This document shows positions 17,250 to 36,200 of a DNA stretch of 64,000 bases, one piece after another. A program made the translations under genes and the position numbers. How positions within the stretch are numbered: the first letter of the stretch is position 1; each line of letters opens with the position of its first letter. Source of the stretch: a virus (taxonomy: Duplodnaviria > Caudoviricetes); IMG/VR virus record IMGVR_UViG_3300014208_000024, positions 96,001-160,000 of that record, one strand, 5' to 3'. Below the pieces are notes generated by a model. The model did no database searches and was not told the DNA's origin. It was given only the letters and a program-made list of their open reading frames with translations.

Positions 17250-20200
17250 TTATGAAGGGGGAATTTTTCCTATTGTTGCAACTATTTGCATTACTCTTTC
17301 TAAATTTTGCTGCGCATAAGCATACTGATATTTGCTTCCAGTCTTTATTCTTACCAAATTACAACTGCAGGTCGGAGATCCAGCATACCCATAAATCATT
17401 TCCATTATTTTATCCCTACCTAAACTCAAATCCATATCAATAGTAAAAGAATTATTACATTGTATTTGTATCCAACACCTTAATGCAGCACATGCAACTG
17501 CATGATCGGAAGAATTGAATAAATAATTCCATTCCCAATCATATGATGTATCAAGTATTTTATCAATCACCGTCATCGGTTTTTGATATATAATAGTATC
17601 ATAAGTTGTATTTACTCTTGACACCCATCTATCAGTTATACTTTTTACAGTGGGATAACTTGTACTATCAACTGGTTGCTGCAAAACATCATCTCTTCCA
17701 AAAAGATATGGAAGAAATTTTTGAAAAAACACTCTCCCAGTATGTTGAGGATATCCTCTTCCTCTAAATTTATTAAAATCTGTATCTACTAATATGTTTT
17801 TAGGATTAGACGTTAAATCAAACCAAACGTTTTGTGGCATAATATGACCTTTCCAAACATCTGAAACGTTTCCAGTGTCTAAACCCAAACTAGACCTGTT
17901 TGTGAAAAGATTTGGATCAGCATGAGCAGTTTTAAATGTCGAATTGTTTTTTAAACTATCATAAACAAATCTGTTTCCTAATATTCCATTATAAGATTGT
18001 TTTCCATCTCCATCAAACAAATAAGAAAGCCCAGGATGCGCACGTTGGTATTTCCCATTTGCTGCAGCTCCCGTCAAACCTTCTGGATTTGTTTTTAAAC
18101 TATTGGCGCCTTCAGAAACTGCTAACCCACCGCTTTCACTAATTGATGTTGTCCAAACTGTAAATATTTCAAAAAAGTTTGCATATCCTTTTGGCCACAA
18201 AATAGGTATTTTTTCAAAAATTTTAGTATTTTGTGGATTTAAAAGAATTCCACTATTTAATGTATCTTTTGCCCAAACACCAACACCTTGCCATTTTCCA
18301 CCTACTTTTTGCATGTGCGTTGCATTGAAATATTCAGTAAAAGAATTAAAATCTGTGTTTGCTTTAAAAAATGCATCCACATCCGCCAAATTTGTAAATT
18401 TTATATCTTTAACCAGTTCTATAAACTTATCAGTAAGCATTAAGGGCGCAGTTATTTTACTATTTGAACCAGTTCCGTCTTCAGTAAATTCTCCTCCATT
18501 AATCGCTCTGTTTTGGTTTTTTGATTTTGGATATGCTTCAACATATTGAGATGGTTGAACCTCCATAGTTTTATCTACATTTTTTGTCAATTCTTTTAAG
18601 TCATCTAATGTAACTGGTGGAATTCCTCCGTATTCTCCATTTGCAGAAAACCTCATTCTAACCCCCTCCATTTTTGTTGTCATATTATTTGGACTTATAG
18701 AATGAGTCACTTTTAATATTTGATACAACCCGCCAAACATAGGCATTTTTTCAATATAAAAATATTGCATTGGATAAACTTGCGCATTGCCTATAATTTC
18801 AACAGTAGCCCTATAACTTCTTCCCTCGAAAACAGGTAACATTGAACAATCTATTGCCACTTGTCTATTTGTACTTTCTTTATCGGCAAGTCTTTGTAAA
18901 TTAATAATACTTTCAGCTGTTGGTTTTGAAGCGTCAGTTCCAACAGAAATTCCTTTTACAATTTGATTATCAATTGCACCAAATGCTATTGATATTGCGT
19001 CATTTTGAAAACTATAAGTTTTCATGTGATCAGTTATTAACTCTGAAGCATTATTGTTTAATTTACTTCTCGTCTCTGGAGTTGGAGTAAACAACACATG
19101 AAAATAATTCATTATTTTTGAATCTACTGGATTTGGATACGGTTTATAAATATCGTTTATATTATCAGAATTTGCATCTCCTGGAAATGGAACAAAAACA
19201 AAATTGTTTTTTGTACAAATTTGTTGTATTATATTTAAAACAGTTGTACTTCCATTAGGTTTATATAAAGGTTCTATGTTAATTATTGCATCTTCTACAT
19301 TTACAACCTTGCCGTTTACTGGGGCCAAAGGATAGTCATAAACAAACATCGTGTTTCCATCTGTTGGACTTTGTTCTTTTAATTTTTTAACAGGATCTTT
19401 TTGTACATGGTTTTTACAATTTCCATATTCATATTCTATACTTCTTGCTAAATCTACACCATCTGGAATTATGTTGCTGCAAAAATCTTGATTTTGTATT
19501 GATGTTGCAATAACCTGCCATTGATGGAATATAGTATGCATTTGTTTATAAATAAGATTTCTACTTTCACTTCCTTTTCCTATTACATTCCCAACAACTT
19601 CATTTCTTTCTGATTCTATCTCACTTAATCTATCAATAATAGATTGACACATTGCTTTAATTATAGCTCTTTGTTTTGCACTTCTAAAGTCTCCACTTCC
19701 ATTTACACAAAATGGTCCAAATACCAAATTTGGAGCACCCCAATCTCCAGAACAATGAGTATATGGCACAAAAGCTAAATTTTTTGCTTCTATTTTACCG
19801 TTATACACGTTTTGGTCATAACTTACAGCTGCAATTTTTTCCTTATCTTGTACTTTTCTTTTAAAAGAATATGAATCATAATCTACTTCTATAGTTTGTG
19901 TAGATGTACTTGGTTTTTTAATCACTTGATTCATAAACATATAATCTGCCACTACACCTTTTTCTATTGCTTCATTTATGTTGTTTACTCTATCTAACGG
20001 CTCACTTGAATCATCTCCAGGTTTCATTGCTGTATCTATAACAACAACTCCTACTGGATTTTTTGAATCAGAATGATTAAGACTTTGATCCATTTCTTCT
20101 TCACTTAACGAAGTTTTAGATTTAGCCTTATTAGAATCATCCAAATTTGCAAACATTATGTACCAATATTCATTAGTAACATTACTATTTATATCGTTTT

Positions 20201-31238: not shown

Positions 31239-32525
31239 TTACATTTTTAAAGAATTTTTTAATGTAGAAAACATTTTTTCTTTTTTTTCTTTATCTCCTG
31301 AAGTTTCTTTAGAGGGAATGTTTTGTATAATGTTTTTTTGTGGTATTAAAAAGTTTTTTAAAGATTTTGTTATAATGTTTTTTATACCTATTTTCACAGT
31401 TTCTTCAACTAAAAAATTCATGAAATTATCAAAATATTGCATTAAATTATTTATTTCATTGTCTAATTTTTGGTTTTTAGTAGTTTGGCCAATTTTACCG
31501 TCAAATATTGATGACAAATGTATAAAAGACAAATATCCACTTATTAACCCATTGTCAATATATTTTTTAAGCAAAATAAGCTTTTGATAAAATACCCCAG
31601 TTTTTAAGTCACTTATAAATTTTTCAACAAATTCTTTTGATTCTACGCTATTAGATTCAACTTCAAATGAAATTGGTATTTTTTTTATTGTTACAAAATT
31701 TTTAAGATTTTTGTCTAATGCAAAACTTATAACATTTTTAGAAGATATTTTAAAATCGTCAATTGTTTTTGTTACAGATATTGATTTAATGTTTTTTATA
31801 ACATAATTTTCAAACAAATCGAAATATGCTCCATTTTTTAAAACCCCTATTTTTTCATATGAATTTCTAATCGTTTCCCATAAAATAGAAACATTATCCA
31901 TACTTGGAATTAATTTAAAAACAAAGTTTGAATCTTTGTTATTTAATTTTTTTATAATTTTAAAAATTAATATTTTATTTCTATCACCCTTTATGGTTAC
32001 AAACCAATTGTCTGGAACCCTAATTAATTCAATATTTTCTTCTGAGTTTAAAATTTCATTTTCATATATTTTTGTGCCCAAAATTCCATTTTCATAGTCT
32101 TCAAAAGTTCCATTGATAAAATTTTCTGGAGAAGTTTTATATGTTAAATTATCTGCAGCATAAGTCTTTCCATTAAATTGTCCCCCGACAAAAAACACAT
32201 TATTTCCACTAAGAAATTCTTTCCCCTTAAACTCTCCATCATTCCATATACCTTGAAAATTGATATTTTTATTTTCGATTGATATTTTGTATGCTTTATA
32301 ATTGCCCAATAACATCCACTTATACTCTGGGTTCAGCCACACATCTTCATCATATGGATTTGTATATCCATCTCCATACATTGCCCCAATAAAGTTACCA
32401 TTTAATAAATATCCATTTTCAACCTCAATCAAAATTTTATTTTGTTGTTGCTTTTTTTTAAAAATATTATTAAAAATTCCTTCATTGATTTTTTTTTGTT
32501 CGTTTAATTTTTCTAATGAATCCAT
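31239..32525 (-). CDS. Hypothetical late protein
   Basis: TATTTATA at 32536-32543; leader MDSLEKLNEQKKINEG; G-x-F/W-x-G repeats near the N-terminus. Confidence 0.7.
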   Translation of the reverse strand: MDSLEKLNEQKKINEGIFNNIFKKKQQQNKILIEVENGYLLNGNFIGAMYGDGYTNPYDEDVWLNPEYKWMLLGNYKAYKISIENKNINFQGIWNDGEFKGKEFLSGNNVFFVGGQFNGKTYAADNLTYKTSPENFINGTFEDYENGILGTKIYENEILNSEENIELIRVPDNWFVTIKGDRNKILIFKIIKKLNNKDSNFVFKLIPSMDNVSILWETIRNSYEKIGVLKNGAYFDLFENYVIKNIKSISVTKTIDDFKISSKNVISFALDKNLKNFVTIKKIPISFEVESNSVESKEFVEKFISDLKTGVFYQKLILLKKYIDNGLISGYLSFIHLSSIFDGKIGQTTKNQKLDNEINNLMQYFDNFMNFLVEETVKIGIKNIITKSLKNFLIPQKNIIQNIPSKETSGDKEKKEKMFSTLKNSLKM

Positions 32526-32602
32526 AGTTTTTTATTATAAATATAATATAAAAATTTTGATTTTAAAATATAATTAAGTATATTTATCAAAAATAAGATA
32601 TT

Positions 32603-32761
32603 ATGAAAAGAAATAAACCAAAACTATCTATAACCATATCTCCAAAAATTTCAAAAAAATTGGACGATTATAAATACAACAAATCGAAATTAATAGACTC
32701 ATTGCTAATAGACTATTTTAAGAAAATGGATAATGGTGCTGTAGAACATGAAAAGTTTTAA
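32603..32761 (+). CDS. Ribbon-helix-helix-like micro-protein 1 (52 aa, not in ORF track)
   Basis: MKRNKPKLSITISPKISKKLDDYKYNKSKLIDSLLIDYFKKMDNGAVEHEKF; beta-strand LSITIS, then two helices. Confidence 0.7.
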   Translation: MKRNKPKLSITISPKISKKLDDYKYNKSKLIDSLLIDYFKKMDNGAVEHEKF

Positions 32762-32786
32762 CAGCTCTTGCACTTTTTTTATTTTT

Positions 32787-32822
32787 TTTGTTATATTTAT
32801 AACAAACACTTAAAATGTTATA
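32787..32822 (+). promoter_or_regulatory. Inverted-repeat operator candidate centred on a TATTTATA promoter motif
   Basis: TTTGTTATA-TT-TATAACAAA at 32787-32806 contains TATTTATA (32794-32801); third half-site TGTTATA at 32816-32822. Confidence 0.6.
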
Positions 32823-32826
32823 AATT

Positions 32827-33000
32827 ATGGCACGCAGAAAAATTGACACATCGGAAAAAAAACAAAATTTATCCATTGTTATTTCTCCATCAACCTTTAG
32901 AAAATTAAAAGAATTAGATTTAAATGAATCTAAATTCATTAATTGGTTATTAGAAGAACATTTTTACAAATTAGAAAATGGAGGAATACATCATGCCTAA
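32827..33000 (+). CDS. Ribbon-helix-helix-like micro-protein 2 (57 aa, not in ORF track)
   Basis: MARRKIDTSEKKQNLSIVISPSTFRKLKELDLNESKFINWLLEEHFYKLENGGIHHA; paralog of 32603..32761; stop overlaps the next ATG (ATGCCTAA). Confidence 0.72.
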   Translation: MARRKIDTSEKKQNLSIVISPSTFRKLKELDLNESKFINWLLEEHFYKLENGGIHHA

Positions 33001-34303
33001 AAAATTCACAACAAAGGAGTTTGTTGAAAAGGTCAAAAAAATTCATAGAGATAAATATGATTATTCAAATTCAAAATATGTAGGGATAAAATTTGCAATT
33101 GAAATTTTTTGTAAAAAACATAAAACATTATTCACTCAAAGAGTAGAAGACCATATTAACGGTAAAGTTGGATGTAGAGAGTGTTCAAAAGAAAAATATA
33201 AGAACAAAAGATTGTGTACAACGGAAGATTTTATAAACAAAGCAAATAAAATACACAAAAACAAATTTGATTATTCACTTGTAGAATATGTTGGAAATAA
33301 CAAAAAGGTTGTTATAAAATGTCCTATTCACAAAGAGTTTTGGCAAACTCCAGTCAATCATTTAAAAGGAAAGAGTTGCCCAAAATGTGCTGGAAAAAAT
33401 CAAACATTAGAAGAAATTATCATCCAAGCCAATAAAACACACAATAATAAATATGATTATTCTAAAGTAATTTATAAAAACAAAAGCACTAATGTTAATA
33501 TAATTTGTCCAATACATGGAGATTTTTTTATGACTTTTAAAAACCATATTTTACACAGTCAAAACTGTCCGAAATGTGCAAAGAGAAGTTTAACAGAACA
33601 AGAATTTATAGAAAAGGCAAATAAAATTCATAACAACAAATTTGATTATTCAAAAGTTATATACAAAGGAATAATTAATCCTATAACTATAATTTGTCCC
33701 ATACATGGAAAAATTGAACAATTCCCATATGAACATTTAAGGAATAAGTTTGGATGTGGTTTATGTTCTAAAATGAATATAATTCCTTTAGAAAATTTAA
33801 TTATTCAAGCAAATATAATTCATAATAATAAATACGATTATTCAAAAGTTAATTTAATAACCAAAGGAAGAAAAGTTGTTTTTACTTGTCCTATTCATGG
33901 TGATTTTCAACAATCTTTTGAAAATCATATTGACAGAAAACAAGGCTGCCCCCACTGCAAATCCAGTAAAGGAGAATCTTTAATTCGTGAATTTTTAATA
34001 AAAAACAACATTTTTTTTGAACCTCAGAAGAAATTTAAAGACTGCAAATATAAAAGTCCACTTCCTTTTGATTTCTATTTAACAGAATTAAATATATGTA
34101 TAGAGTATGACGGAGAACAACATTTTGACAAAAACAATTATTTTAATAAAAAAAATGAAATAAATTTTGTTTTAACCCAAATTAAAGATAAAATAAAGAC
34201 TGATTATTGCAAAATGCAAAACATTCCTTTAATTAGAATAAAGTATGACGAAAATGTAGAAGAAGTATTAAAAAACAAATTAAATTCTATTATAAAAATC
34301 TAA
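32993..34303 (+). CDS. Endonuclease with five Zn-binding DUF723-like repeats + PD-(D/E)XK domain
   Basis: Five units H-x-x-K-(Y/F)-DYS...C-x-x-H...H...C-x-x-C; C-terminal PFDFYL...IEYDGEQHF; start MPKKF at 32993. Confidence 0.85.
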   Translation: MPKKFTTKEFVEKVKKIHRDKYDYSNSKYVGIKFAIEIFCKKHKTLFTQRVEDHINGKVGCRECSKEKYKNKRLCTTEDFINKANKIHKNKFDYSLVEYVGNNKKVVIKCPIHKEFWQTPVNHLKGKSCPKCAGKNQTLEEIIIQANKTHNNKYDYSKVIYKNKSTNVNIICPIHGDFFMTFKNHILHSQNCPKCAKRSLTEQEFIEKANKIHNNKFDYSKVIYKGIINPITIICPIHGKIEQFPYEHLRNKFGCGLCSKMNIIPLENLIIQANIIHNNKYDYSKVNLITKGRKVVFTCPIHGDFQQSFENHIDRKQGCPHCKSSKGESLIREFLIKNNIFFEPQKKFKDCKYKSPLPFDFYLTELNICIEYDGEQHFDKNNYFNKKNEINFVLTQIKDKIKTDYCKMQNIPLIRIKYDENVEEVLKNKLNSIIKI

Positions 34304-35370
34304 AACTTTGCTTTTCCAGACTTAGCTTTATTCATAGCTTTCTTTTCTTGCTCGTTTTGTTTATCCATCTCATCTCTTATTCTTTGGATGTGTTTTTTTC
34401 TTTCATAAACAGCCATATTTATTGCATCTTGTCTATTGATTCCTTTTCCATAATATGTAATTAAAAATATTTCCTCTAAAATATTTTGCTTATATGTTTC
34501 TGGAAGAGAAATAAAATTATATCCCACAAGAACTTTCTGAATAAAGTCTTCTCCGCAGAATGAACATTTAAATTTTACTTTTTCATCTATTCCAACTTCA
34601 TTTTCATTTATAAATTGTGCAATATAGTCTACATATTTTTTTGGAATCTTTCGTATAATTTTTTTTATTTGATCCTTATCTGAAATTCCATTAATTGAAT
34701 CAATGTTATACACCAAAGAAAGAGATTTGTCTTTTCTGATTTTAGTATTTACTCCGTCTTCATTTCTAATAACAAAGTAATCATCTTCAGTTTCATTTTC
34801 AAATTTCTCCATTTCTTTTTCAAAAGTAACAGGAGATATAATAAACTCAGTTTCTATTTCTGGTAAAAAAATAACATATTTGCCCCCTTCGCTTGGTTCA
34901 ACCTTTGGTTTTTTAAATTCTAGTTCTGAAAGCATAAATTCATAATCCGCTTCCTTGCTGCAATGTGGACAAACCAATTTCATCTCAACGTTATTACCAA
35001 AAGCAGTGGATCTTAAAAATATTAGAATTGCTTGAAAATCACTCAACAGTAGTTTTTTAACATCAATGTCATCAATTATCAAGTCTTGTAATATAAGTTC
35101 AATTCCTTTACCAGAAGCCATTAACATTGAATCACATAAAATGTGTTCTTCAACTGCTGTTAAATATCTAATTAAAAGAGATTTTTTCTTATCGGGATAA
35201 TATACCCCCTTAGAAGGAAGGTTGATTATACTAAATTGTCTAGTTAAATCAACCTTCTTGTTGTTGTTTTTTTTAATTTCCTTTTTTAAATCATAAAATC
35301 CCTCTAATAGAATATTTGCATTTTTTTTGAATTCTTCAAAAGCCTGTAAACACTCTTTGTTTTCACACAT
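34300..35370 (-). CDS. T4 gp26-like baseplate hub assembly protein with gp51-like C-terminal extension
   Basis: INLPSKGVYY, RYLTAVEE, LIFLRSTAFG, CPHC, CSFC; tail ILEEIFLITYY...ERKKHIQRI. Confidence 0.65.
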   Translation of the reverse strand: MCENKECLQAFEEFKKNANILLEGFYDLKKEIKKNNNKKVDLTRQFSIINLPSKGVYYPDKKKSLLIRYLTAVEEHILCDSMLMASGKGIELILQDLIIDDIDVKKLLLSDFQAILIFLRSTAFGNNVEMKLVCPHCSKEADYEFMLSELEFKKPKVEPSEGGKYVIFLPEIETEFIISPVTFEKEMEKFENETEDDYFVIRNEDGVNTKIRKDKSLSLVYNIDSINGISDKDQIKKIIRKIPKKYVDYIAQFINENEVGIDEKVKFKCSFCGEDFIQKVLVGYNFISLPETYKQNILEEIFLITYYGKGINRQDAINMAVYERKKHIQRIRDEMDKQNEQEKKAMNKAKSGKAKF

Positions 35371-36200
35371 TATAGGTCTGCGTTAGGATAAAACAATCTA
35401 TATGTCATTGGAACATCATCTTCATAACGATGTCCACAATTTATACACTCAAACTCATAGTTAAAATCTACGCCTGGAGATATTAGTTTAACATATTCTC
35501 TAAACACCAGAGAATCTTTCATTGGCATAGCAGATATTAACTTTGATATATATAATTTATCTCTGTTTCCTTCAACTTCCATAATTTGAAGTCTATATCT
35601 TTCAGTTACAGATTTAGAAACTTTAAAGTTCGTATTCCCTTTTTTAGTTGTCTGGGATGCTTTAGAAATTTTATTTTCATCTTTGCCATTTAAAAATCTA
35701 AATTTTATGTTTTTCTTCATAATTGGAAGTAAAAAATCATATTCACCCTTTGCATCAGGCTGATGTTCCAACATTTTAAGTTTTAATTTACTTAAATCAA
35801 TTACTGGTTCATATTGCTCTCCACAACTAGGACATGACATTTTTCCAGGTTTATATTCTTCTCCCATACCTGTTCTTCTTACATGAATAAGAACAGTATT
35901 CCTGTCTCCAACAATCATGTCATCTGGATTTAACTCTTTGTCTACAATAACAATTTGAAGCAGTGCATCAAGAACTCTTCCGCTTTTAATAAGTTCTGGG
36001 GAAAACAAAACATCATCTTCTTCTGCGGTTAAATATTTTATTTTAACTGTTTTTTTGTTGTTTGCGTAAAAAACGCCTCTTGATGGAAGTTCAATTTCTT
36101 CCGTTGGAACCATAAATTCATTATCTATAAATTGCTGAGGAATTTGTTCTTCAGGTTTATTAGATTGTCCGACAATAATTCTTTTTTCTTGATTTTCCAT
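35370..36200 (-). CDS. T4 gp26-like baseplate hub assembly protein
   Basis: IELPSRGVFY, KYLTAEEDD, GDRNTVLIHVRRTGMG, CPSC, CINC. Confidence 0.75.
   Translation of the reverse strand: MENQEKRIIVGQSNKPEEQIPQQFIDNEFMVPTEEIELPSRGVFYANNKKTVKIKYLTAEEDDVLFSPELIKSGRVLDALLQIVIVDKELNPDDMIVGDRNTVLIHVRRTGMGEEYKPGKMSCPSCGEQYEPVIDLSKLKLKMLEHQPDAKGEYDFLLPIMKKNIKFRFLNGKDENKISKASQTTKKGNTNFKVSKSVTERYRLQIMEVEGNRDKLYISKLISAMPMKDSLVFREYVKLISPGVDFNYEFECINCGHRYEDDVPMTYRLFYPNADL

Follow-up and report, generated by a model that had tools for sequence, protein, structure and literature searches.

The DNA analysed here, which we call the window, is a 64,000-nucleotide (nt) stretch of a virus of the Caudoviricetes (IMG/VR record IMGVR_UViG_3300014208_000024). 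It corresponds to positions 96001-160000 of a single 372,283-bp contig (28.7% G+C) that was assembled from groundwater and derives from a jumbo phage with T4-type baseplate genes. Our subject is a cassette of about 1.76 kb on the + strand (32544-34299), in which two small open reading frames (ORFs), ORF1 (32603-32761, + strand, 52 amino acids (aa)) and ORF2 (32827-33000, + strand, 57 aa), are followed by a gene for a 436-aa homing-type endonuclease (32993-34303, + strand). The cassette is an antisense insert between two minus-strand backbone genes: as an initial annotation of this DNA had pointed out, it lies on the opposite strand to the tail genes. Minus-strand baseplate-hub genes are on one side of it, and a 428-aa gene, the next virion gene, is on the other.

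The initial annotation had also proposed that ORF1 and ORF2 are paralogous genes missed in the list of genes. Both are present in the sequence, ORF1 being of the YNKSKLIDSLL type and ORF2 of the NESKFINWLL type; they are 44% identical along a 45-aa stretch (E 4e-13), and their family profiles match each other (hhalign probability 97%, E 1.5e-11). Comparison of the window copies with those of other cassettes gave ratios of non-synonymous to synonymous change (dN/dS) of 0.15-0.45, i.e. purifying selection, with 0.14-0.26 non-synonymous and 0.3-0.65 synonymous differences per site between cassettes, the synonymous sites being near saturation. Each ORF has metagenomic homologs of 43-72 aa, and an exhaustive profile search returned 349 clusters (defined at 50% identity) at E<=1e-3, nearly all of them 43-75 aa long and of the same two subtypes. 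On this comparative evidence ORF1 and ORF2 are real genes. Their family has no name in Pfam or PHROGs, a tblastn search of 50,697 GenBank phage records with ORF1 and ORF2 gave no match, and the family appears so far to be represented in uncultured material only. The small-protein domain was also seen within 135-201-aa proteins of unknown function (fused forms P0026, P0040, P0052 and P0118); in P0026 an ORF1-type and an ORF2-type unit are apparently joined in one 69-aa chain.

The AlphaFold2 monomer models of both proteins have the ∼45-residue strand-helix-helix topology of the ribbon-helix-helix (RHH) superfamily (CopG/Arc/MetJ/CcdA-N), which is the fold that had been claimed for them. In the ORF1 model (predicted local distance difference test score, pLDDT, 78) residues 1-13 are extended and are followed by helices 14-22 and 27-50, while in the ORF2 model (pLDDT 68) an extended N-terminus precedes helices 21-28 and 36-52; the beta-strand was unformed in both, as expected of single chains. 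When the family profiles were compared with 177,635 PDB sequences the first matches were CopG (0.022) and CcdA (0.06-0.11), and among 100 family members 37 matched Pfam CcdA (best 6.3e-6) and nine matched RHH_3. The nearest named clusters in a language-model atlas were RHH_1, RHH_3 and CcdA, at 0.87-0.90. A Foldseek search with the ORF1 model returned mostly RHH proteins among its 25 rows (CopG, Arc, RelB, ParD, AmrZ, TacA), all at E>=1.1; with the ORF2 model, Foldseek against the PDB gave one irrelevant row (E 9.4) and a wide VIA-align search gave only generic helical hairpins (best Z 3.8). Helix A is ∼4 residues shorter than in the canonical RHH_3-like proteins of the same genome, and it is short in CcdA too. 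ORF1 and ORF2 are therefore predicted to be minimal paralogous RHH proteins of the CcdA-N/CopG type, RHH-like in sequence and in secondary structure.

We also predicted the ORF1-ORF2 complex, which reached an interface score (ipSAE) of 0.47 against 0.00 for the best control and was graded as 'weak support' by the tool. Of 80 solved complexes 58 passed the tool's mark, as did 2 of 110 mismatched pairs, and scores of up to 0.60 were found in only 7 of those 80 solved complexes, plus both passing mismatched pairs. The runs agreed in at least 89% of contacts, with a partner pLDDT of at least 69. Because RHH dimers are themselves solved structures, the pass may reflect likeness only.

The third gene of the cassette, initially described as a Zn-repeat endonuclease, fits that description well. 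It encodes four to five DUF723/DUF4379 Zn-ribbon repeats and a C-terminal nuclease domain, with matches to Pfam DUF723 (6.8e-23) and DUF4379 (5e-12), and its PHROG matches place it in a homing endonuclease family (phrog_559, 5.4e-121; phrog_9084 'homing endonuclease', 1.3e-26; phrog_7140 'intron encoded nuclease', 9e-17). A phmmer search of the PDB with residues 303-436 found no chain at E<=5. A paralog of the window nuclease gives weak matches to DUF559 (4.6e-4) and MTES_1575 (8.5e-5), and the window protein itself has an FDF...EYDGxxH pattern, read by eye only. Its ATG at 32993 falls within the overlap with the ORF2 stop (ATGCCTAA), as had been stated, and both the start/stop overlap and the MPKK start are kept in other cassettes. 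In addition, the 3' end of ORF2 contains a Shine-Dalgarno-like GGAGG motif (32980-32984, + strand), encoded in its ENGG codons and located 8 nt before the nuclease ATG, which is kept in most members of our alignment of 11 cassettes (alignment A3). This arrangement supports a tight coupling of ORF2 and the nuclease gene. The DUF723 orthologs differ in length, at 300 versus 436 aa at the window site (L014:3878-4780 and window 32993-34303) and 360 versus 429 aa at a second site at 206 kb of the genome (L022:3149-4438), apparently because whole Zn-ribbon repeats were gained or lost.

Comparison with related phages indicates that the two small genes and the nuclease gene form one mobile unit. At exactly the site of the window cassette, a related 290-kb phage contig (L014) has genes for two small proteins of 51 and 54 aa and for a DUF723 nuclease of 300 aa. 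In another relative (L024), whose hub protein is 74% identical to that of the window, the gap from the hub stop to the next gene is 13 nt and reads hub stop, c-TATTTATA-aaaa-ATG of the next gene. Relative to this empty site, the insert thus spans roughly 32544-34299 and takes in the two small genes together with the nuclease gene, and this one intergenic site shows presence/absence polymorphism (window and L014 occupied, L024 empty). Neither the nuclease gene nor the RHH genes are present at the empty site, which means that the head, i.e. the part of the cassette that precedes the nuclease gene, travels with the nuclease. The proposal of a selfish element is thus upheld insofar as the unit behaves as a mobile cassette. 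Immediately outside it lies a TATTTATA promoter-like box (32536-32543, minus strand), which reads TATAAATA on the + strand; this is the backbone's own box, serving the flanking 428-aa gene rather than the cassette, and the same box is present in the L024 empty site. A 24-nt inverted match (I1) arises because this box and the one before ORF2 are the same.

The same type of head precedes other nucleases. Within the 372-kb genome the twin pair of small genes is found before three unrelated nuclease types, i.e. Zn-repeat/Vsr-like, EndoVII-like and GIY-YIG/NUMOD3: in addition to the window cassette, it precedes a 242-aa EndoVII-like gene at 38 kb (phrog_1035, 1.7e-13), a 226-aa GIY-YIG/NUMOD3-like gene at 60 kb and a 360-aa DUF723 nuclease gene at 206 kb. 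The 226-aa protein is 28% identical over 155 aa (E 2e-6) to a NUMOD3 nuclease of the same genome, and a phmmer search with it found no match among PDB sequences. Window ORF2 is 76% and 70% identical to its counterparts in EndoVII-type cassettes and 43% identical to that of the other DUF723 cassette; RHH similarity is therefore independent of nuclease type. The order small gene, small gene, nuclease recurs in metagenomic loci and again, with a DUF4379 nuclease, in distant family members. Two GIY-YIG genes, one LAGLIDADG gene and one EndoVII-like gene each have a single RHH-like gene in front of them, and two of these single genes match Pfam RHH_3 at ∼3e-4, just short of the cutoff. Altogether the genome has at least 11 nuclease genes, eight of them with an RHH gene or remnant upstream, and among ∼15 loci every twin head that was seen had a nuclease-type or unresolved gene downstream of it (in scans of IMG/VR the ORF2 family was found at only 3 loci and the hub protein at 2). 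The expected co-occurrence of RHH genes and endonucleases therefore proved to extend to many genomes.

Two additional observations concern nuclease loci outside the window. At 17354-18930 (L007:854-2430) an Arc-like 61-aa gene (phrog_582, 1.8e-4) precedes a 167-aa EndoVII-like gene that breaks off within its H-x-D-H motif, where an ORF2-type RHH remnant continues from about codon 17. Downstream of the remnant are an intact Shine-Dalgarno motif and then a 266-aa EndoVII-like gene; the join looks like the scar of one cassette recombining into another. At 314177-316528 (L013:177-2528) a 783-aa protein with seven DUF4379 repeats (2.5e-77) has no upstream RHH gene, and its weak DUF559/MTES_1575 matches lie in the middle of the protein, not at the C-terminus.

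The non-coding part of the head is also conserved in places. Upstream of ORF1, the P1 region (32555-32587, + strand) consists of TTTTGATTTT, ∼14 nt, and TATATTTAT, the latter 15 nt before the ORF1 ATG, and is conserved in the 11-cassette alignment. A TTTG ∼19-20 nt upstream of TATATTTAT (a TAnnTTT-type box) resembles the host-like TAnnTTTG promoter class of the genome, and we infer that P1 functions as a promoter. After the ORF1 stop there is a terminator-like hairpin with a T-tract (32762-32789, + strand). Across the 11 cassettes 74.7% of cells were paired, compared with 35-42% in slid controls, and double changes occurred in 7 of 9 pairs, a covariation score reached by none of 500 shuffles; RNAalifold predicted no consensus pairs in this segment, and the hairpin emerged only on counting a named structure. 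The hairpin and T-tract suggest that ORF1 may be its own transcription unit. A TATTTATA box before ORF2 (32794-32801, termed P2) is nearly invariant across the 11 cassettes, as is the T-tract. The hairpin with its T-tract, this box and the GGAGG motif within ORF2 are thus three features kept across cassettes.

The TATTTATA box is common throughout the genome, occurring in 80 of 295 upstream regions where 4.8 would be expected. Most of its intergenic copies (94 of 115) are within 60 nt upstream of a start on the same strand, and the box therefore reads TATTTATA on the coding strand. In the genome-wide consensus (A/C)TATTTATA is preceded by a T-run and followed by an A-run, and this consensus is partly self-complementary; the P2 box and its T-run and A-run flanks agree with it. 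A minus-strand T4-type late promoter at this position was considered and rejected on the same 94 of 115 count. Two other classes of upstream motif are over-represented, namely TAATTTGCTTTATATA (∼45 regions; a Bacteroidota-like TAnnTTTG box with TTG ∼20 nt upstream) and TTCCCACTTTT (∼26 regions). Together the three classes suggest that the phage uses host-type and phage-type promoter sets and that its host may be a member of the Bacteroidota.

Homing endonucleases must be held at low, well-timed levels. The reading that we favour, with moderate confidence, is that the window carries a self-regulated free-standing homing endonuclease cassette with its own two-part control head. One unit would consist of P1, ORF1 and the hairpin with its T-tract, and the other of a phage-type TATTTATA promoter (P2), ORF2, the internal GGAGG and the overlapping nuclease gene. 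ORF1 and ORF2 would most likely bind DNA in or near the cassette promoters, as homodimers or heterodimers, and this binding would keep nuclease expression low or pulsed, a circuit logic that can be likened to the control of ant by Mnt and Arc in phage P22 and to autorepression by I-TevI. Here we infer DNA binding by the small proteins, the position of their operator and repression. A broader proposal, which we put forward more tentatively, is that P1, a first RHH gene (RHH-A), the terminator, P2, a second RHH gene (RHH-B) and the Shine-Dalgarno motif may form a portable two-repressor platform, exchanged by recombination among unrelated homing endonuclease families (Zn-repeat/Vsr-like, EndoVII-like, GIY-YIG) and giving a timed or pulsed low-level output wherever it is inserted.

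Several observations weigh against the self-regulated cassette. ORF1 and ORF2 of the window themselves have no match in Pfam, NCBIfam or PHROGs, and the structure searches with their models gave no individually significant match. The window copy of the hairpin after ORF1 is degenerate, with ∼5 of 9 pairs. No RHH gene accompanies three of the DUF723/DUF4379 nucleases that this genome encodes, and a TATTTATA-type box is kept at two of these; the head is therefore not obligatory. No operator could be defined, as the words shared by P1 and P2, the TTTTGA/TCAAAA palindrome in the P1 of L014 and the AATTA repeats before ORF2 are not conserved across cassettes, and the only palindrome in the window head is specific to that copy. 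Finally, the generic promoter consensus and the terminator account for most of the conserved non-coding sequence.

The palindrome deserves separate consideration, because the initial annotation had presented it as an operator with a third half-site. It is a perfect 9-2-9 inverted repeat (32787-32806, + strand) that contains the P2 box, and the third TGTTATA copy follows at 32816-32822 (+ strand). RHH repressors commonly bind repeats over promoters, and the window has three copies of TGTTATA within 34 nt compared with 32 in the whole 64 kb (both strands), so that the repeat together with the third copy might be a specific operator at which the RHH proteins act to repress P2. We consider this unlikely. 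The perfect repeat is found in none of the 10 other aligned cassettes; in three that were checked by eye (L014, L002 and L005) the arms agree at only ∼6-7 of 9 positions, despite similar beta-strand residues in the RHH proteins, and the TGTTATA triplet is found in the window copy only, being absent from the L014 ortholog. Moreover, the window has 3 inverted repeats with perfect 9-bp arms and a spacer of no more than 4 nt, compared with 7.1 per window in first-order Markov simulations, and the T-run and A-run that flank the generic promoter are in any case self-complementary. Since the arms are not conserved, the number of repeats is not beyond chance and the box follows a generic consensus, the palindrome is not evidence for an operator. 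The repeat over the promoter box and the third TGTTATA are thus both real features of the window, and it is their role as operator and half-site that is not supported. Judged by the conservation of the box within it, the palindrome marks a real, strongly constrained promoter-like element. This negative result matters too, as the palindrome is convincing in a single copy and fails when cassettes are compared.

The other explanations concern what the small proteins do. If, as was also suggested initially, the cassette were a toxin-antitoxin (TA)-like unit, one or both RHH proteins would directly bind and neutralise a nuclease acting as a toxin for exclusion or addiction, as CcdA does CcdB. The matches of 37 of 100 family members to Pfam CcdA would fit this, as would the order of a small RHH gene and then an enzyme with overlapping stop and start, which resembles that of a type II TA operon. 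However, CcdA-type antitoxins need a C-terminal toxin-binding segment, and the proteins of this family (44-57 aa) are essentially an RHH core with a short, variable tail and lack such an extension. Nearly identical heads are paired with at least three unrelated nuclease folds, and the nucleases belong to homing endonuclease families with the presence/absence polymorphism typical of homing. On account of the bare RHH cores and of the one head serving unrelated folds we reject the antitoxin reading, to which we give little credence. No more credible is a role of the small proteins as accessory homing or backbone-compatibility factors, which would shield the occupied site, aid recombination or insulate the antisense insert from the late operon. 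Three of the four twin cassettes of the genome have neither adjacent gene on their own strand, the A-tract, hairpin and T-tract that follow ORF1 might terminate transcripts arriving from either direction, and one head is common to nucleases with different targets; but a single conserved head cannot shield the different sites of different nucleases, which moreover bring their own DNA-binding arrays (DUF723/DUF4379 or NUMOD3). Less probable still is that the regulator pair pre-existed and served the phage, nuclease genes having repeatedly inserted or recombined downstream of it as a landing pad. RHH similarity that does not track nuclease type, and the scar joining an EndoVII-like gene to an ORF2 remnant (genome 17.3-18.9 kb), would be expected in that case; against it, the empty site lacks the RHH genes too, so that the head travels with the nuclease, and the ∼15 loci include no twin head that stands without a nuclease-type or unresolved gene downstream.

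The self-regulated cassette resembles several known systems. In the immI region of phage P22 the paralogous RHH proteins Mnt and Arc control ant, with operators that overlap promoters. Both P22 and the window have two paralogous RHH genes, one on its own unit and the other co-transcribed ahead of a harmful gene, as far as the predicted units of the window cassette go; in the window cassette, however, the genes are in tandem rather than divergent and the cargo is a homing nuclease, and the likeness does not imply a sequence relationship. A looser parallel, which the initial annotation had drawn, is with the C proteins of restriction-modification systems. These are small DNA-binding proteins whose genes lie directly ahead of an endonuclease gene in the same transcript, an organisation that the cassette would share. 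C proteins have a helix-turn-helix fold, conserved C-boxes and a methyltransferase partner. ORF1 and ORF2 are RHH-like, the cassette has no conserved C-box-like repeat, and no methyltransferase gene lies in or beside it; since fold, C-boxes and methylase are all missing, we reject membership of this class.

Among the homing endonuclease genes of T4, nuclease expression is controlled by I-TevI autorepression of its own late promoter, by RNA hairpins and by start/stop overlap, as in mobE (PMC2988022). The seg and mob genes of T4 are likewise intergenic inserts between conserved genes that are present or absent among relatives (PMC2988022). They share with the window cassette a start that overlaps the upstream ORF, as in mobE, and would share expression from a phage (late-type) promoter and a tightly limited nuclease. 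In the T4 elements control falls to the nuclease itself, to RNA hairpins or to coupling with host genes; the window cassette would instead assign regulation to dedicated small RHH genes inside the element, with one head for several nuclease families. The closest analog that we found is described in a preprint, which reports that Arc-like RHH proteins encoded beside TnpB in IS605-family transposons repress element genes (bioRxiv 10.64898/2026.09.24.754181). There too, a small RHH protein is encoded within a selfish element with a homing-type nuclease, although the element is a bacterial transposon with an RNA-guided nuclease and a single RHH protein, rather than a phage cassette with a protein-guided homing endonuclease and twin RHH proteins. 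As for the cargo, the nucleases of the window and of the 206-kb locus, with a putative Vsr/DUF559-like C-terminal domain behind a DNA-binding array, are likely relatives of the I-Bth0305I/Hef 'EDxHD' Vsr-like homing endonucleases (PMC3239194); the window nuclease differs in having DUF723/DUF4379 Zn-ribbon repeats rather than NUMOD motifs, and has no phmmer match to solved chains. The EndoVII-like gene of the 38-kb cassette is likely to be related to the F-CphI EndoVII-motif homing endonucleases (PMC6083498).

Full-text literature searches that combined RHH proteins with homing endonucleases did not bring up any account of such phage cassettes. If the portable two-repressor platform is confirmed, it would provide a dedicated trans-acting regulatory circuit for homing endonucleases, similar to that of Mnt/Arc and ant, of which we found no published account; the solutions known from T4, i.e. 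autorepression by the nuclease, RNA hairpins and coupling to host genes, are improvised by comparison. A dedicated, exchangeable regulator head travelling with its nuclease would amount to a new principle in the design of selfish elements, could explain how very different nucleases colonise one large phage, and would be a supply of compact repressor-promoter parts.

The genes that flank the cassette are both backbone genes. On the downstream side lies a convergent T4-type baseplate hub gene (34300-35370, minus strand; PF12322, 5e-14), whose stop overlaps that of the nuclease gene and whose product is 67-74% identical to its orthologs in L014 and L024. On the upstream side the 428-aa phage backbone gene (31239-32525, minus strand) has homologs that flank the site in L014 (35% identity) and in L024. 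The minus-strand region 34300-36200 contains two adjacent paralogous T4_baseplate (PF12322) genes, encoding 356 and 276 aa, each of which also gives weak matches to several Zn-ribbon Pfam models. Cassette pieces identical to the window (32532-34208, run X2), scored for presence only, were found in contigs of a second groundwater study (2022); as these contigs show no differences from the window, they indicate that the same phage strain was present in an independent sample.

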